From a virus (taxonomy: Duplodnaviria > Caudoviricetes): DNA of 53,058 bases. The stretch lies in the IMG/VR virus record IMGVR_UViG_3300035190_000328, positions 1 to 53,058 of that record. One strand, written 5' to 3'. The notes under the pieces are model-generated. The model was not told where the DNA came from and did no database searches. It saw nothing but the letters and a program-made list of their open reading frames with translations. Positions 25,053 to 47,308 of this stretch are shown here, one piece after another (the first letter of the stretch is position 1; each line of letters begins with the position of its first letter). The position numbers and the translations under genes were made by a program.

Positions 25053-25580
25053 ATGCGTAAAATTAAATTTCTACCTGATACAGGTAACATTATTACCCTT
25101 GAAGCTGCTGAAGAATTAACAGTAGGTCAATTTATTGAAGCTCTTCAAGAAAAAGGCGGTCAGTTTGATCTATCTAAAAATTTATTAACTGAAAAGAAAT
25201 CTAAAGCTTCTTTTCTAACTTCAGATTCAGTATTACCAGCAGGTGATATTTCTTTGTTTAGTACTATTAAAGATCCTAAAGGTAATGCTCCTACTTCAAG
25301 ATCTGATGTTTATGAAGCTATTAAAGATTTGAAAGCTGCTTATGGTGATTATGTTAAAACTCATTTTGGTAACTACACTCAAGTAGCTACTGATACGTTA
25401 TTACAATTACTAAAAACCTTTAGTAAATCAGAAGCTCGTAAATCTTTAAGCAAAGGTAATGCTAAAACTACTAAAACTGTAGCTAAAAAAGCAGTAACTA
25501 AAACTACTGCTTCTAAAGAAGATTTAGAACTTAGGGCAGCACAAAAATCATTTACTCCTAAAATCTACAGGAATCGTTAA
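25053..25580 (+). CDS. ubiquitin-like (beta-grasp) domain fused to a helical domain and Lys-rich tail
   Basis: Residues 1-77 follow the Ubl pattern (KIKF..GNIITLE, TVGQFIEAL helix, DSVLPAGD-ISLF) and end in PKG77. Confidence 0.7.
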   Translation: MRKIKFLPDTGNIITLEAAEELTVGQFIEALQEKGGQFDLSKNLLTEKKSKASFLTSDSVLPAGDISLFSTIKDPKGNAPTSRSDVYEAIKDLKAAYGDYVKTHFGNYTQVATDTLLQLLKTFSKSEARKSLSKGNAKTTKTVAKKAVTKTTASKEDLELRAAQKSFTPKIYRNR

Positions 25581-25604
25581 TAACTTTTGATTGTTTGTTT
25601 AATT

Positions 25605-25634
25605 AAGGGCTATCTATAATGGGTAGCCCTTTTA
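25605..25634 (+). terminator. intrinsic terminator between the Ubl and E2-like genes
   Basis: AAGGGCTATCT-ATAAT-GGGTAGCCCTTTTT. Confidence 0.8.
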
Positions 25635-25644
25635 TATTTAAATT

Positions 25645-26475
25645 ATGGATAATAAAGAGATATTAAGAAACATAGTATTAGAAGATGAAATAACAAATAT
25701 TTCTTTTAATGAAAATACATTTACTATATACTTTGGAGATGTAGAAAATACTGATAAAGAAGGACATATTTCTTTATTATTAGAAACTTATATAGAAATA
25801 CCTTATGATTTTACAGCAAATAACCTTAAATTACATAGAGGTATAGTAGATATATTAGAGTGTAATCCTAATGATAACAATGAATACTCAGGATTTGTAC
25901 ATTATAATGGCTATAGTTTTTGTTATGGGGGGTGTGGAGTAGATCATACTTGTAATATTATAAGAGCAGATGGATTAACTTCTGATTTATTTAATAAATT
26001 GATAATTCAATTTCAGAATTATCTATCTCATAGTTCCCATAATACTATAGGAACTTCTTGGAGAAAGATAGAATTTACTTCCAATACAACTGTAACAAAT
26101 ACTGTAGATAAATTTATTACTATAGATGGATTAAAAATTCCTCAAATTATAAAGAAAACTACTACTAATACTGTACTTGATAAATTAGTATATACAGAAC
26201 CCTATGAATTTATCAAAGAAGTACCAAGTAAAAAGTTTACATATAATAATGAGATTATAACTCCTAAAATAGTAAAACATAAAATAGAAGGTATTATACA
26301 AGATACACACCAATATATAGGAGTAGATGTTAGGCAAATATTAAAAAATATAAAACAAAAAACAATTCAAAAATATAAAGATGAAATTAATCTTAAACCA
26401 AAATATACTACAGAAAATTTCTTACATAAACTCACAGATAAGTACAGTAGAGTGGATGGGAGTTTTTATATATAA
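25645..26475 (+). CDS. putative E2-like (UBC-fold) protein
   Basis: FVHYNGYSFC93YGG followed by an amphipathic helix; lies between the Ubl and JAB genes. Confidence 0.45.
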   Translation: MDNKEILRNIVLEDEITNISFNENTFTIYFGDVENTDKEGHISLLLETYIEIPYDFTANNLKLHRGIVDILECNPNDNNEYSGFVHYNGYSFCYGGCGVDHTCNIIRADGLTSDLFNKLIIQFQNYLSHSSHNTIGTSWRKIEFTSNTTVTNTVDKFITIDGLKIPQIIKKTTTNTVLDKLVYTEPYEFIKEVPSKKFTYNNEIITPKIVKHKIEGIIQDTHQYIGVDVRQILKNIKQKTIQKYKDEINLKPKYTTENFLHKLTDKYSRVDGSFYI

Positions 26476-27361
26476 AACTAAAGGGAGTTTTCCTAATAAT
26501 TTTATAATGGAAGCTGTAGATGTTTTATTAATGGCTAAAGGTAGTGCAGCAGAAGTAGGTTATGTTACTGATGTAAGTTTAATGTCTGATTTATGTGATT
26601 TAGGCTTAGAAGAATATTCAAGAGGGTTAATACATTCTCACGTCAATATGGCAACAAATCCTTCAGGTACAGATATTAAAGAATTAGAATCAGCAGCTTC
26701 TACAGGGCCTTATTACTTATCAGTAATAGTTAACAATAGAATGGAAGTTAATGCTTTAGTAGGTATTAAAACAGTTGTTAAAGGTACTGTAAAATCTACT
26801 ATTAAAAATCTATTTGGTAAATTAGTAAATACAGGTAGTAAAGTAGTAGAATATGAAGATTATGAAATAATTAATTGTGAAGTAGTTAAACAGGATTATG
26901 ACTTACCTAAATATATGGTAGAAGTTAATGAAAGATTAGCTAAAATACAAGATTATAATACTGCTGCTCATAGTAAAAGATCTGGTTATATTAAATCTGA
27001 AAAAGCCAAAGAGAAATACAGACAAAATCAAGCTATAAATCAAAGGGGTTCTCAAGCTCAACTATTTGATGATTGGCCTCAAATGGGAGGAGAATCTCCT
27101 TTAATGTTACAACCTGATGATATTGGAGATCCATTTGAAGGATTTATTAAAGAAGCTTTAGAAATGTATTCAAGATATGCTGATAATACTCTAAAACTAG
27201 CTAAAGATACAGCATTTAGTATTAGCAATGATCCTTATAACTATGGTATTCCTAATTCTAGTTTTATAGAGTATCTTAAAAAGAATCCTTACATTAGTGT
27301 AGGATATACAGCAGGTATATTAGCTGAATTAGTAGGAGAGGAGGTAGTTAATGGAGGTTAA
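26381..27361 (+). CDS. JAB/MPN+ (JAMM) metallo-isopeptidase
   Basis: VEWMG...HSH-x7-S-x2-D (HSHVNMATNPSGTD), an exact JAMM motif. Confidence 0.9.
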   Translation: MKLILNQNILQKISYINSQISTVEWMGVFIYKTKGSFPNNFIMEAVDVLLMAKGSAAEVGYVTDVSLMSDLCDLGLEEYSRGLIHSHVNMATNPSGTDIKELESAASTGPYYLSVIVNNRMEVNALVGIKTVVKGTVKSTIKNLFGKLVNTGSKVVEYEDYEIINCEVVKQDYDLPKYMVEVNERLAKIQDYNTAAHSKRSGYIKSEKAKEKYRQNQAINQRGSQAQLFDDWPQMGGESPLMLQPDDIGDPFEGFIKEALEMYSRYADNTLKLAKDTAFSISNDPYNYGIPNSSFIEYLKKNPYISVGYTAGILAELVGEEVVNGG

Positions 27362-28046
27362 AACTAATAGAATTGAAGGAGCTGTTTGGCATAAAGCCAT
27401 TCAAAAACAAACTACTACTATTGTAGGATTAGGTGCTACAGGGAGTTTTGTTAGCTTATTATTAGCAAGAGCAGGAATTAATCATTTAAGATTAGTAGAT
27501 TTTGACTACTATGAAATTCATAACTTAGGATCTCAATTGGCTGATTATCAAGACATTGGAGAAAATAAAGCTCGAGCTACTGCTAATAAATTAGCATTAT
27601 TTTCATCAGCTACTACTGTTTCTGTTTATAATGATAGAATTGAAAATAAATCAGGGTTACTAACCCCTAATTATTCTAATATAGTTATTTCAGCTTTAGA
27701 TAGTATGTCAGGTAGAAAATACATATTTGAAACTATGAAAAGTAATAATTACAGAGGTCAATTATTATTAGATAGTAGAATAGGTGCTGAATATCTTGAA
27801 GTTTATTGTATACCTATGAATAATCAAGATTATGTAGATAGGTATGCTGAAACTTTATTTTCTGATGAACAAGGTAATACTGGAGCTTGTAATTATCAAC
27901 AATCTTCTCATTCAGCTTGTATGGCAGCTTGTGAGATGGTAAAACTTGTAACTAATTGGGTTACTAATAAATTAATGGAGGATGATGATATTCCTTTTAA
28001 AATTACTCACGATTTAAGAACAAATAACTATGGAGTTCATTATTAG
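27351..28046 (+). CDS. ThiF/E1-like adenylating enzyme
   Basis: VGLGATGS, DFD...HNL..Q, GENKA, ALDS..GR and DSR; candidate catalytic Cys180 (GAC). Confidence 0.9.
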   Translation: MEVKTNRIEGAVWHKAIQKQTTTIVGLGATGSFVSLLLARAGINHLRLVDFDYYEIHNLGSQLADYQDIGENKARATANKLALFSSATTVSVYNDRIENKSGLLTPNYSNIVISALDSMSGRKYIFETMKSNNYRGQLLLDSRIGAEYLEVYCIPMNNQDYVDRYAETLFSDEQGNTGACNYQQSSHSACMAACEMVKLVTNWVTNKLMEDDDIPFKITHDLRTNNYGVHY

Positions 28047-28827
28047 AGAACATCAACCATTTACATCAGTAGGTAATCCTGTAGAAATACATATTTTAAA
28101 TAGTATGACAGGATGGATGTCAGAAAAATTTAGATTAAAAATTCTTAGGTATATAGCTAATGGTTTAAATGGTAAAACTGAAATAGATGGTGTTACTGTA
28201 TTATACCATAACTATAATTTTTACAATATTAACAAACAGCTAATAGGTTCTTATTGTAATCTTAATCCTGTATTACTAGAAACTATATCTGTTAGTAATG
28301 TATCAAATGATAGAATTTATATATTATCTAAAGATTATTTTAATCAAAAATTTGCTATTAAATTAAGTAAACAATCAGGTAAAGAAGTATTATTAGTATC
28401 TCATACATTATTTACTAATTGGTGTAATTCTCCTGTTAATCTTAGAGTAAGTCAAAGTATGGCTAATAGGATTATAGAAGAATATCTAATGTCTAGTTTT
28501 GGTATTCAAAGGATAGATAACCCAGATGTTACTAATATAGTTACTGATACTGCTGATGTAGGTTTAACTAATAATGGTGAAGGGTTATTAGCACAGGTAT
28601 TAAATGGTACTACTACAGTACCTTATAATCCTGCTGGTACTGATTTAAATGCTATTTTAACTATTGCTACAGAATTAGGAATTGCTGATACTAATCATGT
28701 TAGAGAAGCTATTAATGATGCAGCTAATGGTAGAGATGAACTTCAAACAGAAACAGAAACTACTACTCATATTGATCAGATATTAGAAGATGTTACTGAA
28801 GAAGATAGGAATGATCATCCATTTTAA
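28030..28827 (+). CDS. hypothetical protein with an acidic tail, overlapping the E1 gene
   Basis: 265 aa; last gene before the terminator. Confidence 0.7.
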   Translation: MEFIIREHQPFTSVGNPVEIHILNSMTGWMSEKFRLKILRYIANGLNGKTEIDGVTVLYHNYNFYNINKQLIGSYCNLNPVLLETISVSNVSNDRIYILSKDYFNQKFAIKLSKQSGKEVLLVSHTLFTNWCNSPVNLRVSQSMANRIIEEYLMSSFGIQRIDNPDVTNIVTDTADVGLTNNGEGLLAQVLNGTTTVPYNPAGTDLNAILTIATELGIADTNHVREAINDAANGRDELQTETETTTHIDQILEDVTEEDRNDHPF

Positions 28828-28837
28828 TTATTAACTT

Positions 28838-28864
28838 AGAGGGAGCTAACAACTCCCTCTTTTT
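28838..28864 (+). terminator. intrinsic terminator
   Basis: AGAGGGAG-CTAACAA-CTCCCTCTTTTT. Confidence 0.85.
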
Positions 28865-28876
28865 AAATTTATAGAT

Positions 28877-29152
28877 ATGAAATTAGATGCTATTGAAAAC
28901 ATTAGGCATTTATTTGGTAAAAATATTACTGTTTCAAGGATAAGTGATATAGCTAAGTATATAGGAGTAGGGGATTTTACTCATGTAGCTAAATTCCAAT
29001 ATAAAGATATTGTATTTTACAGAGCTAGTATTAGAAGATTTAATTGGGCTAAATACTTTGATATTGAAAGAGAAGCTGCTATTGCTGTAGATAAGAAATT
29101 AATAGAAAAAGGAGAAGAACCTGTTAATATATTAAAGAAAAAATGCAGTTAA
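28877..29152 (+). CDS. AP2-like DNA-binding domain protein
   Basis: YRASI....KYF..EREAAIAVD...G. Confidence 0.55.
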   Translation: MKLDAIENIRHLFGKNITVSRISDIAKYIGVGDFTHVAKFQYKDIVFYRASIRRFNWAKYFDIEREAAIAVDKKLIEKGEEPVNILKKKCS

Positions 29153-29994
29153 TAAAACAAAAAACTAAAACACTTATTACACGGGATAATGGAAGATCAG
29201 CAGATGCTATTACTCCTAATTTTGTATACGGGTGTTTAGGAGGTTGTATGAAAAGTTACTGTTATGTAGGAAGATTTAATAATGATAAAGTTTACTTAAA
29301 TGAAAATACAGAAGCTATAATGAAATCTGTATTAGAATGGGTTAAAGATAAACCTTGGCCTAAAATACCTAATCAAACTGATAATCAATATTATACATTT
29401 GACATTGGCTGCTCTACTGATGTTCCTTTGCTAAGTAAACATTATGACTGGCAAAAAGTATTTAATTATTTTAATTCTTTTGAGAAAATAAAAAGTACAT
29501 TTGCTACTAAATATCCTACAAAGTTTGATGTTACTAAATATACTTTAAATAAAGAAAAGAATAGAATTAGAGTAAGTTTAATGCCTCAAAAATATAGTAA
29601 TGTACTAGAACCTAATACAGATTTAATAGAAGATAGAATTAATTGTATACCTAAATTACAAGAACATTTAGAAGTGCATATTAACTTTAGTCCTATAATT
29701 TATGAAGAAGGTTGGTTAGAAAAATATGAAAGTTTATTTAAGACTTTAAAAGAAAAGAATATTGATGTACCTTGTGAATGTATATTTTTAACTTACAATA
29801 TTACTTCTTATACTAATAATTCTGAAGAAGTAAATAAGTTATGTTGGAAACCAGATATACAAGAATCTAAAAACTCAACTTATGCTGATAATAATATAAG
29901 ATATAAATATCAAATTAAAGCTAAGATGATACAAGATTTTAAAGAACTTTATGCTAAATATTTTAATATTAATAATATAAGATATATATTTTAA
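29143..29994 (+). CDS. spore photoproduct lyase-family radical SAM protein
   Basis: NGRSADAITP..GC...C....CYV, FDIGCSTD, FATK, RIRVSLMP and VHINFSPII. Confidence 0.8.
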   Translation: MQLIKQKTKTLITRDNGRSADAITPNFVYGCLGGCMKSYCYVGRFNNDKVYLNENTEAIMKSVLEWVKDKPWPKIPNQTDNQYYTFDIGCSTDVPLLSKHYDWQKVFNYFNSFEKIKSTFATKYPTKFDVTKYTLNKEKNRIRVSLMPQKYSNVLEPNTDLIEDRINCIPKLQEHLEVHINFSPIIYEEGWLEKYESLFKTLKEKNIDVPCECIFLTYNITSYTNNSEEVNKLCWKPDIQESKNSTYADNNIRYKYQIKAKMIQDFKELYAKYFNINNIRYIF

Positions 29995-32857: not shown

Positions 32858-35800
32858 TTATCTAGTCTCATAAGTCTTAGACTTAGCTTGTTCTGTTAAT
32901 TCTAATAACTCATCAATACCTGAGTATCCATTTATCCATTGTGCTGAATAATGGAATTGATTAGCTTTATCTCTAGGATTATTCTCCCCTACTGAAAAAT
33001 CCCTTATTTCATCTGCTGTATTAGACAATGTATTAGTAGCTTGATCTAATACTCCAATTAGAGGTAAAGGGTTCTTTAAAAGCCTTGTAAACTCTGATGG
33101 GGTATAAACAAAACCTACCTCTGCTAATGATTTATTTAAGAACCTATAAGTATTTCTAAGAGCTATATTTTGTTTATAATAAGGTTCATCATCATCTCCT
33201 TCTAATCCTAAAGCAAATATAGCAGTTAAAAGACCTATAATAACCCTTAAATCTCTGAGAGCATAGCCTATTTGCTTTCTTTTAATTTCCATGTAATCTT
33301 CAAAAGATGTTAATTCAGCAGCTTCAGGATTCTTATTAGCCCATTGTTCATATTTATATCTAGCTATTTCTTCATTAACCCTATTTTTATTCCAATAACC
33401 AAATGTTATTAAATCTCCTATTAGATTACCTATTTTAGGTAATACAGTAGTAGTTATATATTCAGATATAGTTTTAGATTGATCTTTGTAAAATTCTTCA
33501 ACTAAAGCTCTATGAGTACCTATATCTAAGTAATCTAAAGATTCATTATATCTTGTAGCACCAAATCTCTCTTGTAAAATACCTGGCATCCATGTTTTAA
33601 ATGTCATTAAAGATTTTAACAGGATATTACTTTGATAAGCAGCTACATCATCTTGGGACATAGTACCATAAGATTTTCTTACAAATTCTTTAATAGCCTC
33701 TCTTAATTGATTAAGTTTATTATAATAATTTTCAGAACCTTGTTTAAATTCACCTTCAGTTATCAAATCATAGGCTGATTTTGCTCCTTCTGGTAAATTT
33801 TTTAAGCTACGCAGTTTCCCTTTATCATCAAATCCATATCTTTTAGCTACCATAATAGCATTAGTACCTGATAACCATTTCTCACCTTGAGCAAAGAATA
33901 TTAGGAATGTGTGAGAACTAAATACTTTATTTAATACATTCTGAGAAGCTAATTGAGCTTTTAAATCATTTTGATTATCTGTATAAGGATTTACTTGGAT
34001 AAGAAAATCTGTAACTTTCTTATCTCTTGACCAAAATTCTTTTTCAGCTTCATAGAAATCAAATCCTAGTTTCTTAGCCATATTAGTAGAAGCCCATTTA
34101 CCTGCTATAGCTGATACTGCTGCTGGTATTACTTTAAAACCAAGCCTCATTTGGATATTCTTGTTATTAGCTGTATTAATAAACTTAGTTAGCCCTTTAC
34201 CTAATTTCTTAGTTACTGAAGGATCTAATTGTATTCCATATACTTTCTTATTAACAGCAGTAGTAAATATCTCTATAGCTCTTATTTTAGAGCTATTATT
34301 AGCATCTACAATAGGTTCTCCAGTAGGAGATTTAACAATCCTACCTAAAGCATCTGTTACCTCAAAATTATCAGCTAATTGTAAACCTACTTTTAATATT
34401 TCAATATCAGCCTCAACAGCCTGCATATTCTTAAAGTTATATACCATATTAGCAAATAGCATATAATCTTTAATTAAATCCTGACTTCTATCTGAATAGT
34501 TTATCTCTCCACTTTTATTTCTAAAAGGATTAATAAAATACTTAGGGATATGATGTCTAACTTCTTTTGTAGAAGGATCTATATCTCCAAATATAGTATC
34601 ACCTTGCCTTACAGCAGCTAAGTAAGTAAATTCATCTTTTAAAGCTTGGGTAGGATCCTCTCTCATTTTATCTAAGAAAGTCTTTCTAATCCAAGGATAA
34701 AAGTTACCTTTAATATCTAAATCTAAATATTCTTTAGATTTCTGATTAAAATCTAATAGATAATTATAAAGAGGTAATAATGCAGTACCATCTATCTTTT
34801 GATAAGCTTCTGAAGTATATTTAGCATAAGCTTCTTGGTTAGGTTGATAGTACCTTGATCTTAATTCATTAGTTTTAGCAGCTTCAAGATTATTCTCCTC
34901 TTCCCATTCTTCCATATATTGCTTAAATAAAGATTCTGCTTTAGAAGGATCTATTTCTCTAATAGGAGAAATATAATTTTCTAAGGACACTTCCCTATTT
35001 TTTTTTAATTCAGCGTACTTCTGTCTGGCATTAGGTTTTAATTCAAAATAGCTATTTATGAAATCTACATTGTTCTTATTAGCTTCTTGGTAAAATTCAG
35101 GAGATAGTCTTGTTATAAAATCCCCTTTATCATTTTTTAATAAATCTATATTTAATCCTTGTTTTTTAACCTCATTGTAAAGCTCTGTAAGCTTATTATT
35201 AAAGATTAAAACTTCATCAAAAGTTTTCTGTTGTTGTTGATTTAATATTCTATCTAAAGCTGTTAAATGAGGTACTCCTACATTTCTAAGAGGTACAAAA
35301 TTATCTAATACTGAGTTACTAGGAAGAATTTTAGGAGTTAAAACATGGTTATCTTCCATTAATTGGGAATTAATAGATTCAAATTGAGCTTCAATCTGCT
35401 CTAAATAAGTTATAATATCATCTTTAAGAGAAGCTATATTCTTTTTAAATTCTTCTTTTTGTTCAGAATCTTCAGCTTTTTCTAATATATATTTAGTTTC
35501 TTCTTTAATTATTTTATCAAAAGCTTTTAATTCTGTATAATAGTTTTGTAAATCTGTTTTAGATAGGTTATTAATATCTTTTAATCCACCTAAACTTAGC
35601 CTTACAGCATCTATTAAATTCTTTAAACCTTTATCTTTCATAGTATCTTCAATAGATTTCTCTAATTCATCTACTAAGAGTTTCATTCTTTCATGCTCTT
35701 TAGAACCTTTTTTTAGCTGCGCTAGTTTAGTTTCTCTATCTTTCTTTAATTGTATCTTAATTCTTAAAGCTTCATTTCTTGCTTTACTATCTGAATATTC

Positions 35801-36649
35801 AAAATGTCCATGAATAGTATCTAAGTGAGAACTAAATTCTTTAGGCACACTATAAGCAGTTTGTATATTTTTACCACCACCTATAATCATAATAGGAATA
35901 GTCCTAGCTTGCCTGTAATTTTCAATCTTAGTTTGATTAGTTAAAGCTTGGGCATAAGAATCTATACCTAATTTAGCAGCTATTTTTCTTTTTCCAGAAA
36001 TACCATCTCTAATAGGAACTAATTGATTATTATAACCTTTAGTATTTAATTGATTCGCATTATAGGTTATAAAGTCAAATATAGCTCCTGTACCATCAGA
36101 ATATTGAGCTACAAGATTAATTGTACCTGCTATATCTGAAAGGTTATCTACAACAATCTGATCAGCTTTAATTAAAGCTTTTTTAGTACTATCTATATCA
36201 TTTTGTTGTTTAATAATAACATCTATAGTATTCTTAGATAACTCATATAATTTATCATAAATATTAGAACTAAATTTTTTAGTTATAAGCTCTTTAACAG
36301 GTTCTATATCTAAAGTATTACCTTCATAGTTTCCTATAAGTACATTGTTAATCAAACCTATAGCTCTGTTAAGCTCATAAGCAGTTTCCTTAGTTGTACT
36401 TTGTTTCTTACCAGTATAATTATTAACTATCTGGCTAACCCTTCTGGCATTTAGCTTAGTATCTGTACCTGAAAGAACATAATCCTGCCCATTGTTAACT
36501 ATGTTAGCATTAACAACTTCAAAATATTTTTCAGTAAACTCCTGATTAGCCTTAGTAGGTAATTGAAGAATAGTGTTTTTAGATGCCTTATAATTAGCAA
36601 TTACATTATAAGCTCTTTCTTTATCTTTAGGATCTATTATACAACTCAT
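32858..36649 (-). CDS. large virion cargo/ejection protein
   Basis: 1263 aa, downstream of the vRNAP; begins MSC; degenerate PD-(D/E)xK domain; FKTWMP..L..RF and C-terminal hydrophobic helix. Confidence 0.75.
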   Translation of the reverse strand: MSCIIDPKDKERAYNVIANYKASKNTILQLPTKANQEFTEKYFEVVNANIVNNGQDYVLSGTDTKLNARRVSQIVNNYTGKKQSTTKETAYELNRAIGLINNVLIGNYEGNTLDIEPVKELITKKFSSNIYDKLYELSKNTIDVIIKQQNDIDSTKKALIKADQIVVDNLSDIAGTINLVAQYSDGTGAIFDFITYNANQLNTKGYNNQLVPIRDGISGKRKIAAKLGIDSYAQALTNQTKIENYRQARTIPIMIIGGGKNIQTAYSVPKEFSSHLDTIHGHFEYSDSKARNEALRIKIQLKKDRETKLAQLKKGSKEHERMKLLVDELEKSIEDTMKDKGLKNLIDAVRLSLGGLKDINNLSKTDLQNYYTELKAFDKIIKEETKYILEKAEDSEQKEEFKKNIASLKDDIITYLEQIEAQFESINSQLMEDNHVLTPKILPSNSVLDNFVPLRNVGVPHLTALDRILNQQQQKTFDEVLIFNNKLTELYNEVKKQGLNIDLLKNDKGDFITRLSPEFYQEANKNNVDFINSYFELKPNARQKYAELKKNREVSLENYISPIREIDPSKAESLFKQYMEEWEEENNLEAAKTNELRSRYYQPNQEAYAKYTSEAYQKIDGTALLPLYNYLLDFNQKSKEYLDLDIKGNFYPWIRKTFLDKMREDPTQALKDEFTYLAAVRQGDTIFGDIDPSTKEVRHHIPKYFINPFRNKSGEINYSDRSQDLIKDYMLFANMVYNFKNMQAVEADIEILKVGLQLADNFEVTDALGRIVKSPTGEPIVDANNSSKIRAIEIFTTAVNKKVYGIQLDPSVTKKLGKGLTKFINTANNKNIQMRLGFKVIPAAVSAIAGKWASTNMAKKLGFDFYEAEKEFWSRDKKVTDFLIQVNPYTDNQNDLKAQLASQNVLNKVFSSHTFLIFFAQGEKWLSGTNAIMVAKRYGFDDKGKLRSLKNLPEGAKSAYDLITEGEFKQGSENYYNKLNQLREAIKEFVRKSYGTMSQDDVAAYQSNILLKSLMTFKTWMPGILQERFGATRYNESLDYLDIGTHRALVEEFYKDQSKTISEYITTTVLPKIGNLIGDLITFGYWNKNRVNEEIARYKYEQWANKNPEAAELTSFEDYMEIKRKQIGYALRDLRVIIGLLTAIFALGLEGDDDEPYYKQNIALRNTYRFLNKSLAEVGFVYTPSEFTRLLKNPLPLIGVLDQATNTLSNTADEIRDFSVGENNPRDKANQFHYSAQWINGYSGIDELLELTEQAKSKTYETR

Positions 36650-36651
36650 AG

Positions 36652-37314
36652 CTATTTGCAGGTAGAGTCTATAGACCCTTTATTAATAGTTTGTAATAGT
36701 GTTATTTGTTGGTCTTTATTTAACCAATCTAAATTATTGTAATCTTCTTTAAAAGAATTTAAAGCATCTTCATAAGTAGGATATATTTCTCCTGCTACTT
36801 CAAACTGATTTTCTCCTAATTGGTTAATACTATTACCTACAGTAGTTACAGGTAAATCTATTTCTACACTATAATTATTAGCAAAATCTTTAGTAACAGT
36901 AAATACTTCAGGAAATGCAGATTCTAAGTTTTTCATAGTATCTACATTAACCTGTAATTTCCTAGTATTATAAGCTTTCTTTTCTTCTTTATCAAACTCA
37001 ATACCTCTGGTTATAGTATATTTACCTGTTTTATTAAATACAGGTTCATATTTATGAATTATACCTACTAGGTTATCTAGTACTTCTTGTAAAGTAGTTC
37101 CATTATTAATAAGTTCTGCAACTTGTTTAGCTTGATTATTAGCTTTAACCTGCATATATTTAGAATACTCAGTAATAGTTGGATAAACATAGTTAATACT
37201 ATCTTTACCTGTTCTAAACTTAGTATAAGCTATAACTCCATCTTCTGCTACTTTAGTACCAGCCCATAAAGCTAAACTTCTAAACAATGGTAATCCTTTA
37301 TTTACACAACTCAT
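36652..37314 (-). CDS. small cargo-module protein
   Basis: 220 aa, MSC...TCK, coupled to both neighbours. Confidence 0.75.
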   Translation of the reverse strand: MSCVNKGLPLFRSLALWAGTKVAEDGVIAYTKFRTGKDSINYVYPTITEYSKYMQVKANNQAKQVAELINNGTTLQEVLDNLVGIIHKYEPVFNKTGKYTITRGIEFDKEEKKAYNTRKLQVNVDTMKNLESAFPEVFTVTKDFANNYSVEIDLPVTTVGNSINQLGENQFEVAGEIYPTYEDALNSFKEDYNNLDWLNKDQQITLLQTINKGSIDSTCK

Positions 37315-40300
37315 TATAAACAGTCTTTAACAAATGTAGTAAAATCTTCTGAATCTATAGTAGTATCTTGTTGAGCAGCTCTTTGTTTTAAATGATCTAT
37401 AAGAGCTTCATCATTAACATAGTTAGTAGCTATTTCAGGTTTATTAGCCTTAATCCAATCTAAAGTTTCAGTAACTTTTTGCATATCTACTTCTAAAACA
37501 GGTTTAGCTGCTACAGCAGTTATCTCAGAATCTAAAGTAGATTTATTATTAGTAGAAATCATTACTAACCTATTAGAAGGTCTTGAAACTGCTACATATA
37601 AGCTTTTGTTCTTATTAACTGTAGAACCACCATTAGTAGAACCTAGTATATTATCTTCAAAAACATATACATTATTATAAGTAGAACCTTGAGCTTTATG
37701 AGAGGTTATAGCATACCCATATTGAAGATTAGCAAAATTAGCTTTTAAAGCAAATGCTAATTGTTTATCAGTTTGGAATAAACTAGCCACATCTTTATTA
37801 AATTTCTCTTTACTACTTTCTGCAATAGCTAGTATTTTTACTCCGTAAGCTACCATTTTTAAATCTGGTAGTATTTCACCTTCTTCATTTAATAACTCTA
37901 ATTCTACTACATTATAGTTAAAATTAAAAGATCTACTGCCCATTTTAGCTGAGAATACACTAATACTTCCTGTAAAGTTATTTATGGCTTTTAAAGAATG
38001 TATTATGTAATCATCAGAATTATATATTACAGGTACAGGAACTCCTCCTAAATCTGTAGTATATGTATCATAAGCAGTTATAAATTCTCCAACATTAAAT
38101 TGGTTTTTAGCTTTTTCTCCCCAAAGTTTCTCTCTAATCTTAACATTAAGGTTTTTAACACTTAAAGGAGAACTATGGTTCTCATTATTAAATGTCACAG
38201 CTTTAACATACTCAGGGTTATTATTAGCTTCTTTAATATCTTTAACCATACTATCTAAAGCTTCATCTACATTATTAGTAAATAGTAATGTAGATTGGCT
38301 AATAGGATCTATTTTATTAAATCTAAAACCTTCAGGTATAGCTATTAATTTAGGAGTTTTACTCTCTATATTTCTAGCTACTAAAGTTCCAGCACCTATA
38401 ATAGGGCTATTAGCAGCTTGTCTCATTTTTTCAACTAAAGTATATTGATTTTTAATATCAAATACAGGACTATCTACATCCTCACCTACAGGAGGTAATT
38501 GTGCATTATCTCCCATAAATATAACTTTAGCTGAAGGTTTTTTAAGCTCCATAATTTCTTTATAAATATTTGGAGAAATCATTGAAGCCTCATCTACTAT
38601 AATTAAATCTAATTGTTTAATAGGTACTTTACCTTGCTGTCTAGCATATAAATCTGGAGTAAACTCTCCTGTAGATTCATTAAGTTTAATAGCTAGTGCT
38701 GATGCTACAGTAAAAGCATTCTTTTTACCTATAGATTTACCTAAAACTTTTTTAGCTTTATGTGCAACAGTAATACCTCCTATTCTACCAGTATAACCTT
38801 CAATAGTTTTTTTGATAATAGTAGTTTTACCTGTACCACCTCTACCTATTAGAGTAAATTCTGTAGCAGGAGATCTTAAAAACCCATCTAATAAATCAAG
38901 AGCTTGTTGTTGCCCTTCATTAGCAAAAACTCCTGGGAATAATTCATATTTATTCTTTTTAACTCCTTCCATATTTGTTGAAGGTAAAGTTACATAATTT
39001 TCACCTTCTATAATAGGAGTATAAGCATGATAGTAATATTTATCTCCAATAGCTCCTGTAGGTAAGTATTGTTTACCTTGGAATGGGAAGAATACTCCAT
39101 CTATGACAGCATGAGACCTTGTTAGTAAGTATACTTCTTTCTTACTATTACCTACTAATATTATAGGGCCTTTTTGATATATCTTATCACTATCTAAAGG
39201 TTGTCCTGCTTGATAACCATCTCTTGAAACATATTTTCTTAATCTTTTTTCTACTATACCATTTTGTTGTAGAAACTGTTCTACAAATTTATGAGGTATT
39301 ACAGGTTCCATATTCTTTAAAGCCTGTAAAGACATATCTATATATTCCTTTGGTAGTAACTTCTGATAACTAATAGGGCTATCAGAAATACCTGATTGTA
39401 ACAATTGAGCTATAATAAGTTTCTTAGCAAAAGGTTGAGTTACAGGATTATCATATAATTCCTTAAATCCTTCTGCTAATATTTCTTGTTGTACAGGGTT
39501 AACCCTTTGAGATACTAATTTAATATTATAAGTACTTCTAGGTTTAATATCCCCTTTGTCTTTACCTTCTTCTGGTAATAGAGGTATCATTTCCTGTAAG
39601 AATTTATTATCAGGAAACTTATCTTTTAAATCTAATAACTCAGTCATTAACTCACTAGTTCTTAGTATACTAGAGTATTCACTTAAAGTTTTACCTGAAT
39701 CTAAAGGAGATGTTATTAATCCAAAAGTTGCTAACTCCCTATCAGCTCTTTCTAATATAGTAGTTAAGTTATTAGCTCCTGAGAACCTATATAAATCATA
39801 GATAATATCCATAATTTCAGGCCCTCTAAGGTATTTATCAAAACTCACAAACTGCATACCTGAAGACCAAATCTTATCAGCTTCCATAGCAGTATTTTTA
39901 AGTTCTTTTAATAGGGTATCTTCAAATAGGTTAGGTAAGTTTTTAAAAGATTTATCTTCTAAAACATCATAATACATCTTTCTTTTAATCCAAGAATCTA
40001 CAAGTGTTTTACCAGCTTGTTTAGTATCTTGATTAGAAACCTGTTGTATCTTATTTAATTGAGAACCTGCTCTATTATATAACTCAAAGCTGTATAGTAC
40101 CTGAACTTGTTGTTTTAACTCATCTAAAGACATAGTATTCATATCTTTAGACATATTATCTTTAAGTTCTGCTTTAGTTATGTAGTTAACAAGAGTTTTT
40201 CCTTCTTTAAGTTCATCATAGTATTCAGCTAAATCTAATGCTTCACCATCTTCTATTTCTTGCTGAGTAAGATCTACTTCACTTCTAAGCTTAGACATCT

Positions 40301-43300
40301 TAGATATTAAACTATTTATTATTTTATAACCTTTCTCTTTACCTTTAAAGTTTAAGATTGAGTTATTTTTATCTAGTAAACTAGTATATTCTCTAATTAT
40401 AGGTTGGTTAAGAAAGTAAATAACCTCATCAAGAGGTATTCTCTGTCTTAATAATATATTAACTACACCAAAAGTATTAAAACTTACATTAGTGTAAGTA
40501 ATATAATCATTACCTATTTTAGAAACATCTACAGCAGCAGATATAAATTGTTTTAATATAGCTGAAATCTTTTGTTTATTATCTATATCATATACTGAAT
40601 CCATAGGATATTCAGATAGTTTTTGTATACTATCAAAATATAGTGTATATTCTGGACTATAGTATGATATATCTGCTTGTTGAAATAGAGCATGTGAAGT
40701 TGTAGCTAGTGCAGCAGGGCCTACTAATTGTTTAAACTTCAATAGTTTATTTCTAGTAGCTACTATCATCATAGGAGATAATATCTTAGTATACTCATAA
40801 GATTTAATGCCCCCTAAACTTTGTCCAGTAGCGGCTATTACTTCTAAAGCTACTTTCTTTAAATCATCAGTACTATCTGAAGTTAATAGGTTTTCTTTAG
40901 CTTCTTCTGAAGTAACTACTTGAGCTATAATATCTATAACCTCATTCTCAGCTATATACTGATCATAATTTCTTAAAAGATTATTTTGTTCTTTTAGCTG
41001 AAACAATAATTTCTGGATTACAGGATTATTATCCATTTCCTTAAATTTATCTTCAGCATATTTAATATTTTCTAAAGAAACTTCATCATCTTCTACTTGC
41101 TCATCTAAAAACTCTTTGTAATCTTTAAATTCTTCTTTATAAGGTTTTAATAAACTCTTAGTAACCTTAATATCAATTAATAAACTAGCTTTAGATTGTA
41201 ATACTTTAACTTGGTTTCTAACAGTATAATAATGTGGAACATAAGTTGTAAGTTTATCCACGTCAAAGTCAGAACCTGCTTTAATAGTTATACCATTAGG
41301 TACTACAATTACATTACCTAATGTAGGTGCTAGAAATTCCTTAACTAAAACAGCTTCAATAGCATTTTGACCTTGGGTAGGTATCCTATAAGGCACTAAA
41401 TTCCATTCTTCTCTAAACTTAGGTAATACCTCTTTATTAAATTTGTTTAACTTATCCTCAAAAGTATCTCCTTCTAATTCTAATACTAAAGGCATTAGTT
41501 TTTGAGGTAAAGCTATTTTAACTTCAGCATAAGAAACTCCATATCCTGATTCAGCTTTCTCATAGAATTTAAGGGAATTATCTAAATCAGGAACCTGAAT
41601 AAACATTTCCCCTGGCATATCTCTTTTAACAACTTCTCTGTTATAAAAAGACATTAGGTTATTCTCTAATTTAACCTTCTCAGCCATTGCATCAGCTCTA
41701 ATTACATCTTGTGATAGAATAGCTTGTAATTGTTCTTTAAAGGTCTCAGAAGTCTTCCTTTGAAGCATAGCTTCAGTTACTTCTTTCTTTAATTTATCTT
41801 TATCTGTAAATAAATAAACCTTGTTTTCTCCAATACCTTCTATTGTAATAGATAGATTATCTAAGAATTTACTAAACTTTTGAGCAGTAATATCATTTAA
41901 CAAATTATTATAGGTATCAATTACTTCTTTAGTAACTTTAACATCACCATTAGCATAGTGTAATTCAGGATCTTTAACAATATCAACAAAATCTAATTTA
42001 GACATCTGAGTACCTAAAGTTACTCTCTTATGTTCTTCAGGAGAAGTTTCTAAATGCTCCCCCATAAAAGAATAATTAATTCTTTGTGTTACATTGTATT
42101 CATCAGAATCAATATCTTGAGGTTCATTTATATTATTACCTTTAGAGCCTGAAGCAAATACACCTAAACCTATTTGAGCTTTCTGCATTTTAGCAGCCAT
42201 CTCAACTAACTTAGGCATACTATATTGCATACTTCTTGGAAGTACAGGCATTACTGCCATTTTATATAAATCTGTTATATAATACCCAGGAGTATAATCT
42301 TCTCCATAAGCAGGGCCAGCATAACCATATTTCTTAACTGCTAAAGCAAATGTTTCATATATACCCTTAGCAGGATATACATCTGTTAAGGTATTTTCAT
42401 AATCATATAAAGATTGAAAATCTTCATTCCATTGACCTAACCTTAACATCATACTTCTAATAAAATCTAAAGTACCTATACCAGAAGCATCTGCTAAATC
42501 TCCTTTTTCATTACTATCAATAGCTCCTTTTATAAACTCTTGATAAGTACCTGTTATATCTTTAAATACAATTGTACTTTCAAAACCATCTTCCATTTTA
42601 CCATCTGCTCTTTTATATAAAGCATTGATAGATTGATTTAAAGAAGGGCTATTAATAGCAGGTTTCTTAGATGAGGTAAACAAGGTAAACCTCTTAATAG
42701 GATCTTTAAAGTTATTTAAAGGGCCTGTAAATAAGTTAGATTGCTCATAAACACTTTGCCAATGCTTAATCATATAGGTTCTAAAGTTATCTTCAGATTC
42801 CTTATCTAAATGATTAGTATCATATTTAGCAACCTTATCTTTAAAAGCAGCTACTTCATTAGTTATAAATTCTTCTACTTTAGATTTAACTAAAGCATAA
42901 TCTTCTAGATTTTCTCTTGAGTAATCTAAAGGATTTTTCTCAAGAACCATAACTCCTTCAAAAGTTACTAAATGTCCACTAGGAGTAGCCTTATCTCTAG
43001 TACTTTGAGGTAAATTAGCTACATATTGTATTTCATTAAATACAGCTTGCACTAAAGAATCTATAGAAGGTTCTTCAGGCATTTCTAATTGCCAAGCTAA
43101 TTCTACACCCCTATCAGCAGATGGTAATACAGGATATATATTATTCATAGTAGCCCTGTAGTGAAGCATAGCCTGAGCAGCTTCATCCATATCTGCATAA
43201 TCTGTAGGTAATCCTAAAGAAGATTTAGCTTGTATCATATTAACAAGCTTTCTGTTAGATTTAATCCATAGAGAAGATTCTGTAGGGAAATTACCTAAAT

Positions 43301-46300
43301 AATCAGCATTACCTTGTTTAATAATACTATCTCCTATAGCATAAGCTGTAGGTAAACTTAAAGCATATCTTTTAGCATTCTTAGAATCTAATACATTTAA
43401 ATCTGTAAATTCATCATTATATAATGTAGCTTGTTCAGCTAAAGAATTAATTTCTTTATTTATAGATAATCCATTTTTATCAAAAAAATAATCTACAGGA
43501 GTATCTTTAGTTAATCCTCTTAAAGCAGCATCTATCTTAGATAAGTCTCCTTTTTTAGAATATTTACTATAGTTTTCACTATCAGGAAATCCTAGTAAAT
43601 CTAATAATTCTTGATTAGTAGATTTATCTAAAGCTTCTTTTAATTTATCTAATTGAATTAATAACCTACCTTCTGGAGTTAGTTTAACTAAAGGAGACCT
43701 TGATAAATTAGCTCTCCAAATATCTTTAACTTTATTAATATTTCTTTCCTTTTCAAATATAATTTTAAAAGGCTCTTCTCCAGATTTTATATCATTAAAC
43801 TGCATAACAAGAAATTCTTGTTTAGCTTTAGCAAATGATTGTACAAATTTTAATTGTAGATTTAATTCATCTTTTGTTTGAGGAATTTTATCTAATTTAA
43901 ACCATTCAATTAGTTTATTAATCTCAGGTCTTTTCTCAGCATATTTTTTAAGTTCTGTTAATTGACTTTCTAAAGTAAAGTTATTAGCTAATTTAGCATG
44001 TAAAGCATGCAGGGTTTTAACATAATCTACAGCTTGAGGTAATCCTACACTATTTAAAACTACTTTACCTTCCTGATTAATAACAGGTAAAGCTGATATA
44101 ATAAGTTTAACAAGACTATCATCTAAATCCTCAACTGACGTTTTGTCAGAATCTTTAATACCTAATCTATCTTTTACTTCAGTTTCCTCAATTTCTTCTT
44201 CAGGAAGACTGACAAATTGTCCTATAAATTCTTTATGCTTTACAAATACTTTCTGTAAATCCTCTTTACTAAAAGTATCTTTAGCTACAAATTGTAACAT
44301 TCTAGGCCCTACAAAGCTTATATAAGAATCTAAATCCTTAAATACACCTTGTCCTATTAATTTATCTAATTCAGAAGATAAGCTATTTAAACCTACGGTT
44401 TGGTTGAGTTTACTTATAATCAAAGCATGGTTAGAAGCTACTGTCATATTAATAGCATCTGGGCTTAAACTATAAGCATCATTACCTGATTGAGGTATTA
44501 TATTACTACCTTGATAATAACCTGATAATATCTTATCATAAAAATCATTTAATGTATTACCACTAAATAACTTCTTAATAAAATTCCATATTCTTTCAAA
44601 TATACTTAACTCTTCAGGACTAGTTTGTTTAGTATTAGCATAGGTTCTAAAATCTTCAGCTAATAATTCTTCTTCTAAGTATTCTGTAGATTTATCACCA
44701 TATAGATCCCTTAATTCAGCAATTCTATCTTGATAATCTTCTCTATTCCTAATCCCTTTTAATAAAGTTTCTCTTTCTTGAGGAGTAGTAAACAACCTAA
44801 ATACTCTATGAAAAGCTTCATGGTATTCAGTACCTTCAGGACTTTGAGTACTAACAAGTATTTTACCATCTTTAGTAAAGGCTCCAAAAGCTTTACTTTG
44901 AATAAGTTTATTTACTACAGATACATAGTTATTTACATAATCAGAACCAAATAAATTAGTAAGATTTTGTTGTATTTGATCTATATTTCTAAGTATAGGA
45001 GAACCTATAGTAGATAATTGAATAGAACCTGTATCTCTAGCTTCATCTACAGTAACTTCATTCCATGTATTACCATATTCATCAGTAACAACTTTAGCAT
45101 TATAACCTTGTTTCTTCAAAACATTTGCTATAGTGTTTTCATAGAAATTATAAATAGGTTTTAAAGCTGCTAATCCTTCAGGCCCATTAACTCTTTCAAG
45201 CTCTGCTTTAAGTTGAGTTATTTCTATATCAAATTCTGTTTCTTTATCTTTTTTTAATTTTTCAACAGTTTCTTTAGAACCAGATTCCATATAAGAATAC
45301 CCTGTACTTCCATTGGCTTCTTTTGTTTTAAGAATATAATCTCCATTAATAAGTTGTGAACTTTGTCTGGTTAATCCCGCCTCATTTAAACTAACTACAC
45401 TATACTGTATTTTATCTCTTTCTATTTTTTTATTTTCAAGATCTTTAATCCTATCTTCTTTTTCTTTCTTAAACTCTTCTAAAGTACCATGCCCCTCAAC
45501 TTTACTAGCTGTATTACCTGTTGGAAATAATACTTTCTCATATCCTTTTTTAGCACTATCTTGTACAATAGATTTAACAAAGAATGTTACCCAAGCATTA
45601 TCTTTATTTAGGAGTTGTAAGAATTTATTTTGAGGAGATTTAATATCTTTAATTTTATATAAAGAATCAAATGCTTTAAAACTTTCCTCACTACCTACTT
45701 CATAATTAGTTTTTTCTACCCAACTATAATAAGCATCCCATTTAGCTTCCTGTAAATCTTCTCCTAAATTACTGGTAAATCTATCTTGACCTTCTAAACT
45801 ACTTTTATTTATTAAATCAATCCTATCTCTACCTTTCTGAAATAAATCAGATTGTACTTCTAGTATTCTACGGGTTTTAGGATTTGAATATTTAGCTTTT
45901 CTATATTCTTCTTCTGATATAATCTCTCCATTTTTCTTATGTTGAAAACCTTTACCTAAAGAATATTCTTGTGTATATTTATTTCCAGCAATTTCAAAAT
46001 CTTTTTCTTTATTTTGAATAGACATAGCTTGTTTAACAAAACTAGCTTCATCACTTCTAAACCAACCTATACCTTGATCCGTGCTGAAAGCACCATGTCC
46101 TTTAATAGAAGGAGTAATATCTGGAGTTTTTATTTCATTCTCTGTATAGTTAGTACCCCCAGGTACAGTTAGATTAGAATAATGACTTGTAGGTTTTTGT
46201 AATTCAGTAATTAAATAAGTTTCAGCTTCTTTTTCAGTTTTAAAAGATTTTAAAGGCATTGTAGTATAAATATCTACAATAGACCATCTTTTTTCTCCAT

Positions 46301-46829: not shown

Positions 46830-47308
46830 TATTTAAGGTATTGTTGAATAAATAATTGATTAAACTTAGTAGGTTCTAAGTCTTTAGTAGTATCTACTAA
46901 TCCTGACCAATAACCTATAGCATGTCTTTGAATCTTAATAAACTTCTGTAAGAACTCAAAGGTAGTTAATTCCTCATCTAATACAGAATTAGCTACTAAT
47001 TCATAAGCATCTCTTACTACAATCATTAAATTAGAAGCTTTTTGAATTATATCTATCAAAGATGTAAACTCTGGTTTAGTAGTATCCAATGTAGGAAACT
47101 CTACACCAGCTTGCATATCTAATAGATAAGATTGTAACTTTTGTGTATGTAAAATCTCATCATTAGCTTCTTTTATAAAGTATTGATAAGCAATACTATA
47201 ACCATTCTGAGCAGCATAGTTAGCTGCATAGTTAAAGAATAAATGTGTTGTATATTCAGCTTTTATTAAAGCTGCAAATGCTTTTACTGTACTTTCTTTT
47301 ATGAACAT
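46829..47308 (-). CDS. ferritin-like protein (degenerate ferroxidase site)
   Basis: 159 aa four-helix pattern: IKAE, GY....YF..EA.DE..H..KL..YL.D and TFEFLQ.FI..Q. Confidence 0.8.
   Translation of the reverse strand: MFIKESTVKAFAALIKAEYTTHLFFNYAANYAAQNGYSIAYQYFIKEANDEILHTQKLQSYLLDMQAGVEFPTLDTTKPEFTSLIDIIQKASNLMIVVRDAYELVANSVLDEELTTFEFLQKFIKIQRHAIGYWSGLVDTTKDLEPTKFNQLFIQQYLK

Follow-up and report, generated by a model that had tools for sequence, protein, structure and literature searches.

Positions 25053-28827 of the viral record IMGVR_UViG_3300035190_000328 (53,058 bases; the whole of this stretch is called the window below) hold five co-oriented open reading frames (ORFs) on the + strand, lying inside the replication module of a lake-water crAss-like phage. 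In fold or motif, the products of four of them correspond to a ubiquitin-like protein (Ubl), an E2 enzyme, a peptidase of the JAMM type and an E1, respectively, the assignment being firm for the E1, JAB and Ubl proteins and moderate for the E2. The operon is best read as a self-contained, phage-specific ubiquitin-like conjugation pathway, in which conjugation itself is predicted; we put the probability of this reading at roughly 60%. An earlier description of the same DNA, made from the letters alone (hereafter, the sequence-only reading), had named four co-oriented genes, an overlapping fifth gene and a terminator, and all of these were found in place. The genes are as follows:

25053-25580, + strand: Ubl precursor gene, 175 amino acids (aa)
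25645-26475, + strand: E2-like gene, 276 aa
26381-27361, + strand: JAB/JAMM peptidase gene, 326 aa
27351-28046, + strand: minimal E1 gene, 231 aa
28030-28827, + strand: fifth gene, 265 aa, whose product has an acidic tail at its C terminus

The Ubl gene is separated from the E2 gene by a spacer of 64 nucleotides (nt), and the genes that follow overlap by 95 nt (E2/JAB), 11 nt (JAB/E1) and 17 nt (E1/fifth gene). Library scans (Pfam, NCBIfam) covered 11 genes, comprising the five of the cassette and six flanking ones.

The same four genes were found together, in the same order, across a large set of phages. An alignment of the E1 retrieved 246 relatives on viral contigs, from which 80 loci were kept, and the Ubl, E2 and JAB genes were located in these by iterated profiles; a locus search with the single E1 sequence gave no relatives. 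The order Ubl-E2-JAB-E1, on one strand, was seen in 75 of the 80 loci, and in the remaining five the contig breaks off within 1.2 kb of the E1 gene. A synteny survey had been proposed in the sequence-only reading, and its outcome was co-occurrence of the four genes in 75 of 75 untruncated viral loci, from a set spanning 21 to 23 clusters at 70% identity. The four proteins also co-diverged, with rho values of 0.86 to 0.92 in a comparison made without a control. Throughout a large phage lineage, the four genes are passed on together as a single, tightly coupled unit. The more distant members could be tied in by profile comparison: against the E2 profile, hhalign gave 91.9% for a 444-aa gene of a crAss001-like phage and 95.3% for a 420-aa gene of phage FpV4, with the cysteine aligned, and a 225-aa gene at the Ubl position in the crAss001-like phage matched the Ubl family at a probability of 88%. 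The E1 was present in 86 records of named phages (crAss001, DAC15, Kehishuvirus and Kolpuevirus isolates, and 29 Flavobacterium phage of the FpV/FPSV series), and the hosts of cassette carriers comprise Bacteroides, Flavobacterium and a lake-water host. In crAss001 the cassette corresponds to gp79-gp75 (NC_049977.1, 81394-85804); gp79, gp78 and gp75 are labelled hypothetical there, gp77 'metalloprotease domain containing protein' and gp76 'thiamine biosynthesis protein, ThiF'. A search of the literature, which left most subscription journals and supplementary operon tables uncovered, found no paper on a Ubl/E1/E2/JAB system in crAss-like phages and none describing this cassette.

When the E1 alignment was searched against cellular genomes (one genome for each of 185,579 prokaryote species), two short contigs from metagenome-assembled genomes (MAGs) were returned, against 246 viral matches. 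One of these, assigned to a 'Bacilli bacterium' (L090; 29 kb), carries a complete Ubl-E2-JAB-E1 cassette, and the other is assigned to a 'Spirochaetia bacterium' (L091; 3.7 kb). Both are probably phage DNA mis-binned into MAGs, and viral contigs account for nearly all members found of the E1 subfamily. Such confinement would also suit a counter-defence decoy or eraser, whose JAB would remove the tags that the host puts on phage proteins while its E1, E2 and Ubl would compete with, or mis-charge, the components of the host. [quoted passage not shown] For that purpose, however, the JAB alone would suffice, and that Ubl, E1 and E2 have been retained, active-site residues included, in phages of such distant hosts speaks for a pathway working on its own, so that a decoy or eraser appears improbable.

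Judged by its sequence, the 231-aa protein is certainly an adenylating E1 of the ThiF/MoeB type. It matched the Pfam family ThiF (PF00899) at 5.8e-24 (85 bits, relative to a cut-off of 28.1), and its best PADLOC matches were Cap2-type E1-E2 models (down to 2.6e-15). A profile search of the PDB placed UBA5 at the top (9e-14), followed by MccB, ThiF, UBA6 and Cap2; the match to UBA5 spans the Rossmann core alone. Residues R7, G26, G28, D50, D52, N58, Q62, K73, D117, R122, D141 and C180 were invariant in 30 of 30 orthologues, and in the same set the GxGxxG motif, including G31, was invariant or nearly so. The protein consists of a single adenylation domain: CxxC zinc pairs, a rhodanese domain, a second (inactive) adenylation domain and a ubiquitin-fold domain (UFD) are all absent, in agreement with the minimal ThiF/E1 carrying a candidate Cys180 and no CxxC that had been recognized from the letters. 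In crAss001, PhiCrAssBcn, Kehishuvirus, Kolpuevirus and FpV phages, the E1 is labelled 'thiamine biosynthesis protein (ThiF)'. Since no thiamine genes lie alongside it, this label is probably a mis-annotation carried by the name.

The 326-aa protein has an exact JAMM motif (E24...H85-S-H87-x7-S95-x2-D98), invariant in 4 of 4 orthologues and in every uncut row of an alignment of 29, and the exact JAMM peptidase described in the sequence-only reading was in this way borne out. The catalytic domain occupies residues 1 to about 140 and is followed by a C-terminal extension to residue 326. Profile comparison with the PDB gave Rpn11 (2e-4) and archaeal JAMM1 (1.2e-3), the nearest solved sequence relatives being deubiquitinases, and a PADLOC JAB model was matched at an E-value of 0.0049. 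The gathering score of the Pfam family Prok-JAB (25 bits) was not reached by the window protein (15.4 bits), and a crAss-type orthologue scored 21.1 bits.

The JAB gene is uninterrupted in the window and in one of its three closest relatives (L005). In the other two it is split by a group I intron (positions 7009-8140 in L003, and at the same place in L004), inserted between the codons for His85 and Ser86-His87 of the zinc motif, equivalent to about 26633-26638 of the window. The insert, of about 1.1 kb, matched Rfam RF00028 (74.9 bits, E-value 7.9e-19) and carries on its reverse strand a 282-aa ORF with two LAGLIDADG-like motifs, corresponding to a LAGLIDADG endonuclease. Homing elements typically target conserved active-site sequence.

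The 175-aa protein was resolved into a beta-grasp domain (residues 1-72), a flexible tail reaching K-G77-N, a helical domain (about 83-133), a disordered lysine-rich segment (134-154) and a final helix (155-166). An AlphaFold2 (AF2) model built from 23 sequences had a mean confidence (predicted local distance difference test, pLDDT) of 75.2 and showed the order beta-beta-alpha-beta-beta-beta, then a low-confidence linker and the helical domain. Foldseek returned five matches in the PDB at E<=1e-3; those to ubiquitin and NEDD8 (both with a probability of 1.00) and to the B. fragilis ubiquitin covered about 77 columns at a root-mean-square deviation of 2.3-2.9 A, with TMt values of 0.64-0.74 and 18-22% identity. 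With VIA-align the best Z was 8.3, 204 chains were found at Z>=5, and all of the matches listed aligned residues 1 to about 77. A ubiquitin-like beta-grasp fold for residues 1-77 is therefore firmly supported by the model, and the check by structure search that had been suggested for this protein came out in favour of ubiquitin-type folds with both programs. Sequence comparison was less informative: the protein had no match in Pfam, NCBIfam or PADLOC, it gave only chance-level rows when its profile was compared with PDB sequences, and it matched PHROG 15560 ('unknown function') at 3.8e-5.

Gly77 lies within a K-D-P-K-G-N stretch that was invariant among close relatives (8/8 and 11/11), the glycine itself being kept in 23 of 23 sequences. 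The far more distant crAss-type orthologues have K-K-I-[KR]-S-G at the corresponding position, and across 41 aligned rows a conserved glycine was found 5-9 residues past the last strand, in the low-confidence linker, in all but one, which is cut at its N terminus. The sequence-only reading had called a beta-grasp-like protein with Gly77; the fold and the invariant glycine stood, with the correction that Gly77 is not the C terminus of the protein. The glycine is internal and is followed by 98 residues that form a conserved domain, a feature of the predicted precursor that the sequence-only reading had left unmentioned. No member of the family ends in glycine, so a reactive C-terminal glycine could be produced only by cleavage, for which the product of the adjacent JAB gene would be the obvious agent. 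The lysine-rich tail was also considered as a conserved acceptor or DNA-binding feature, and this was rejected: the tail is confined to the subgroup of the window, and crAss-type tails are acidic.

The 276-aa protein is likely to be an E2. Its AF2 model (pLDDT 83.2) comprises an N-terminal UBC-like domain (about residues 1-135) and a C-terminal domain made of a beta-hairpin and a helix (about 143-266). The N-terminal domain starts with a helix and a beta-meander; His86 and Cys93 lie in the loop that comes next, after which a short and then a long helix lead to the separate beta-rich domain. The motif H86-x6-C93-Y-G-G is present, and in 37 aligned rows (23 clusters at 70% identity) R65, C93, G95 and S131 were conserved at 100% and H86 at 97%, C93 also being invariant in a count of 40 out of 40. 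In a VIA-align search with the model, at least 27 of the 50 matches listed were E2, RWD or UEV proteins by title, over about 100-125 residues and at Z values of 3.9-5.3, a range in which the program warns that a score (any Z under 8) may reflect merely a common arrangement; the bacterial E2 BubB (9eav chain D) was among the matches at Z 3.9, and eight further matches of the 50 concerned the C-terminal domain only. A second VIA-align search of the PDB listed E2s in 23 of 50 rows, with residues 3-129 of UbcH5 aligned to residues 1-144 of the model. The ESM Atlas listed Prok-E2_D and UQ_con clusters at a TM of 0.49, under its own bar. It is the enrichment for UBC-type folds, the His/Cys pair and the fixed place between the Ubl and the JAB/E1 genes that together lead to the E2 reading. 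The family is small: a search of 1.84 billion proteins gave 21 representatives at E<=0.001. Three of its members (P0006, P0018 and P0019; 444-448 aa) have an N-terminal extension of about 160 residues that has no counterpart in the window protein.

Taken together, these features suggest the following course of events. The Ubl would be made as a precursor, and the JAB would cut it after the tail glycine (Gly77, or the glycine of K-S-G in crAss-type proteins), freeing both the beta-grasp and the conserved helical domain. The E1, probably a homodimer like UBA5 or ThiF, would adenylate this glycine with ATP and then take up the Ubl as a thioester on Cys180, from which it would be handed to the E2, at Cys93 in the UBC-like domain. 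By way of its C-terminal domain, the coupled fifth gene product or both, the E2 would deliver the Ubl to lysines of target proteins, with no E3 evident, and the JAB may in addition reverse the tag. The fixed place of the cassette in the replication module suggests as targets phage or host proteins involved in genome replication, or else host defence proteins. Active protein tagging by the cassette is plausible on these grounds. As a wider claim, it is about an even bet that many crAss-like phages, crAss001 and DAC15 included, run a Ubl cascade of their own, fixed in the replication module, built from phage-restricted families, using a precursor-fused modifier and tagging phage or host proteins.

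A number of observations weigh against conjugation, the chief caution concerning the Ubl. The region past Gly77 is as conserved as the beta-grasp (for example R83, T109 and L116), which means that the beta-grasp could be a permanent domain, of the kind found in UBX proteins and in BAG1, the latter being the top Foldseek match of the Ubl model (E-value 2.3e-4). The tail is K-G or S-G rather than G-G. For the E2, the best Z for the fold was 5.3, under the level of 8 below which VIA-align advises caution, and Foldseek found nothing in the PDB at E<=1e-3. By sequence the E2 candidate had no Pfam match by hmmscan at E<=0.1 and none in NCBIfam or PADLOC, the UQ_con and Prok-E2_D models gave no match on this single record even at E<=10, and comparison of the E2 profile with PDB sequences returned chance-level rows only. 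The fifth gene is conserved in position and not as one family, no E3 and no target were identified for the cassette, and cleavage, adenylation, thioesters and conjugates are all inferred steps. The E2 call had been named the weakest link in the sequence-only reading, and so it remains: motif, fold enrichment and position speak for it, the modest Z values and the lack of any matching sequence model against it. The check for a UBC fold was likewise split, as VIA-align listed mainly E2-type proteins and Foldseek none at its threshold.

The conserved second domain of the Ubl protein also gives room to a processing or assembly device that conjugates nothing to a target. The Ubl would then be a cleavable chaperone or regulatory module, as in ubiquitin-ribosomal-protein fusions and lambda TAPI/TAPK, or a permanent adaptor domain of the BAG1 or UBX kind, and the E1 and the cysteine protein would do work that does not involve lysines, such as C-terminal adenylation in the manner of MccB or PaaA. 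Besides the conservation of the C-terminal domain, the layout of a Ubl followed by a helical domain resembles BAG1, MccB (about 5e-13) and PaaA (about 6e-12) ranked high among proteins of solved structure related to the E1 in sequence, and JAB-mediated release has been predicted for phage TAPI (Iyer 2006, accessible part). A device of this type would need neither an E1 nor a UBC-like protein with Cys and His, yet all four genes, with their catalytic residues, were kept in 75 of 75 loci; the substrates of MccB-type enzymes, moreover, are short peptides and not beta-grasp proteins. Such a device is accordingly held to be unlikely.

A different use of the E1 has also to be weighed. Its C180 sits at a ThiF-C184-like position. 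A cysteine at this place also serves sulfur transfer, so that C180 by itself is no proof of a thioester and counts among the points against conjugation. In a sulfur-carrier pathway modelled on ThiS/ThiF, MoaD/MoeB or CysO/Mec, the processed Ubl, once adenylated by the E1, would end up as a thiocarboxylate and pass its sulfur on to a nucleotide, a DNA base or a small molecule, and the 276-aa cysteine protein would relay persulfide sulfur. In keeping with this, the top NCBIfam rows of the E1 were ThiF and MoeB models (all far under their cut-offs), several sulfur carriers of solved structure, MoaD and SAMP1 included, matched the Ubl fold at a Z of about 7 in VIA-align, and the neighbourhood is one of nucleic-acid metabolism; JAB peptidases are also described as accompanying ThiS/MoaD-like carriers in sulfur-assimilation clusters (Iyer 2006, accessible part). 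On the other hand, no rhodanese, cysteine desulfurase, sulfurtransferase, or thiazole, molybdopterin or thiouridine synthase was found among the cassette and the six flanking genes scanned, as the sequence-only reading had maintained in stating that no sulfur-transfer or cofactor genes were nearby. A UBC-like partner is not used by sulfur pathways, and the missing G-G tail tells against a sulfur carrier as well. The absence of a rhodanese domain from the E1 points the same way; according to the accessible part of Iyer 2006, the E1s of E2/JAB operons never have one. Overall, a sulfur-carrier role seems quite improbable, and conjugation to proteins is retained as the preferred reading.

The operon contains two terminator-like hairpins, which were among seven terminator-like sites found, relative to 1.2 expected:

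25605-25631, + strand: terminator-like hairpin in the Ubl-E2 spacer, 12-base-pair (bp) stem and T-run
28838-28860, + strand: operon-closing terminator-like hairpin, 8-bp stem with 5 GC pairs, then a T-run

The first of these is an addition to the sequence-only reading, which had named just the closing one. It has a minimum free energy of -17.6 kcal/mol (z = -3.63), which was equalled by 2 of 200 shuffled sequences. In none of 54 distinct related loci did the Ubl gene overlap the E2 gene (median spacer 60 nt), and the spacer folded at -8 kcal/mol or below in 44, the shuffle test applying to the window hairpin only; numerous spacers of 60 nt folded at about -26 kcal/mol. Further downstream, the E2/JAB overlap was kept in 53 and the E1/fifth-gene overlap in 52 of the 54 loci. 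The hairpin in the window may serve as an attenuator or stabilise the mRNA, and would in this way raise the amount of Ubl above that of the enzymes, and its recurrence after the Ubl gene suggests that this may be a conserved way of keeping Ubl above enzyme levels.

The fifth gene is, from its 17-nt overlap, predicted to be translationally coupled to the E1 gene. A co-oriented ORF of 196-268 aa was found directly 3' of the E1 in 80 of 80 loci. The product of the window gene was homologous only to those of its three close relatives; against the downstream group of crAss-type phages, hhalign gave a probability of 0.1%. No family was assigned to it by any library scanned, and the ESM Atlas gave nothing usable. 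An assignment as E3 or adaptor was dropped as unsupported, and a part for the protein as adaptor, target or E3-like partner is speculation.

The window itself comes from a record with an estimated completeness of about 44%; its DNA was present in lake-water metagenomes from several studies, and no similarity to known phages was found at the DNA level. The replication module lies on the + strand, between about 12 kb and 32 kb, and encodes a DNA polymerase, helicases, a Sak4-like annealing protein, a primase, a PD-(D/E)XK exonuclease and a uracil-DNA glycosylase (UDG). Just past the operon terminator lies a radical-SAM-like gene of the spore-photoproduct-lyase family (29143-29994, + strand), which matched TIGR03886 at 190 bits (below the cut-off of 437.55) and the Pfam family SPL at 5.6e-12. 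It is an unusual cargo for a phage replication module, and it is not found beside the cassette in crAss001 or FpV4. Giant ORFs are present on the - strand at 37314-46829 (3171 aa), 47299-52596 (1765 aa) and 32858-36649 (1263 aa). The C-terminal part alone of the 3171-aa ORF matched PHROGs (Dda-like helicase, 2.7e-68); the other two had no PHROG match at 1e-5.

Bacterial Ubl conjugation (CBASS Cap2/Cap3, Bil and Bub) has so far been studied as host anti-phage immunity. Here the full set of enzymes is owned by the phage, its gene order and catalytic residues are strictly kept, and the lineage includes the best-known human gut phages. If conjugation is real, it would represent a new level at which phages control the cells they infect, and Ubl tagging would be a phage weapon too, used for controlling replication or disarming the host. 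It would also constitute a fourth mechanistic flavour of prokaryotic ubiquitination, characterized by a minimal single-domain Cys E1, an unrecognised E2 family and a precursor Ubl. As crAss001 and its Bacteroides host can be cultured, the cassette is directly testable at the bench.

The sequence-only reading had likened the cassette to Bil, type II CBASS and PRTRC systems. That it would work like these holds, whereas the defining features of each, when looked for, were not found. Bil systems are described in the accessible part of PMC11601596 as having separate genes for Ubl, E2, JAB and E1 and no E3, with an E1 made of an inactive and an active adenylation domain and a Cys domain. The cassette shares with Bil the placing of four roles on four separate genes and the lack of an E3, but its E1 is one 231-aa ThiF domain and not a multi-domain protein, its Ubl is fused to a conserved C-terminal domain, and its E2 lies outside all sequence models and has an extra C-terminal domain. 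Bil is also a bacterial anti-phage defence, while the cassette is phage-borne, as the ratio of viral to cellular matches for its E1 shows. Bub systems (6E/DUF6527, types I and II) have a fused Ubl that needs a JAB cut (BubCD cleaves BubAB), as is predicted for the cassette, and resemble it in having a small E1 of homodimeric type. Their intermediates are oxyesters on serine and their E1 is without a catalytic Cys (PMC11601596, accessible part), in contrast to the invariant cysteine kept by the cassette E1 and by its putative E2. They further have fused genes (Ubl-E2, JAB-E1 or E2-E1) and a DUF6527 serine protease; the genes of the cassette are separate, and its five proteins had no DUF6527 match in the Pfam scan. 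Type II CBASS resembles the cassette in the E1 domain, which matches Cap2, and in the presence of a Cap3-like JAB. Cap2, however, is an E2-E1 fusion that conjugates a CD-NTase and works with no Ubl, whereas the cassette has a Ubl and separate E2 and E1 genes, and no CD-NTase was matched among the 11 genes scanned, at the thresholds applied. The PRTRC systems (NCBIfam TIGR03734-03742) are likewise cassettes of Ubl, E2-like, JAB-like and ThiF genes borne by mobile elements. The PRTRC A, B and C models had no match on this record at E<=10 (the blank for model A being weak, as it matched no control genome), and PRTRC_ThiF scored 31.1 bits on the E1 against a cut-off of 144.75.

Outside these systems, the accessible part of Iyer 2006 describes bacterial operon types with E1, E2, JAB and Ubl genes, and the TAPI-TAPK pair of lambda and T1, and within that part the present cassette is not described. 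TAPI is presented there as a Ubl domain with a conserved terminal Gly and a linker to a C-terminal domain, its release by JAB being predicted. The cassette has the same phage-encoded arrangement of Ubl, linker and C-terminal domain, with a JAB predicted to free the Ubl. TAPI/TAPK, in contrast, has neither E1 nor E2, lies in a tail-assembly cluster and combines JAB with NlpC/P60; the cassette has an E1 and an E2-like gene, no NlpC/P60 domain and a place in the replication module. In eukaryotes, ubiquitin-ribosomal protein fusions are comparable in that a Ubl modifier is made fused to a second conserved protein, and UBA5, the minimal homodimeric E1 of the UBA5/UFC1/UFM1 cascade, is the best solved sequence relative of the cassette E1. 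The cassette Ubl and E2 match no solved protein by sequence, unlike the E1, and the PDB sequence searches showed no specific kinship to UBA5/UFC1/UFM1 cascades. The cassette lacks hallmarks by which Bil, CBASS, Bub and PRTRC are each defined. We read it as a new, phage-borne and phage-restricted form of the prokaryotic Ubl conjugation systems.

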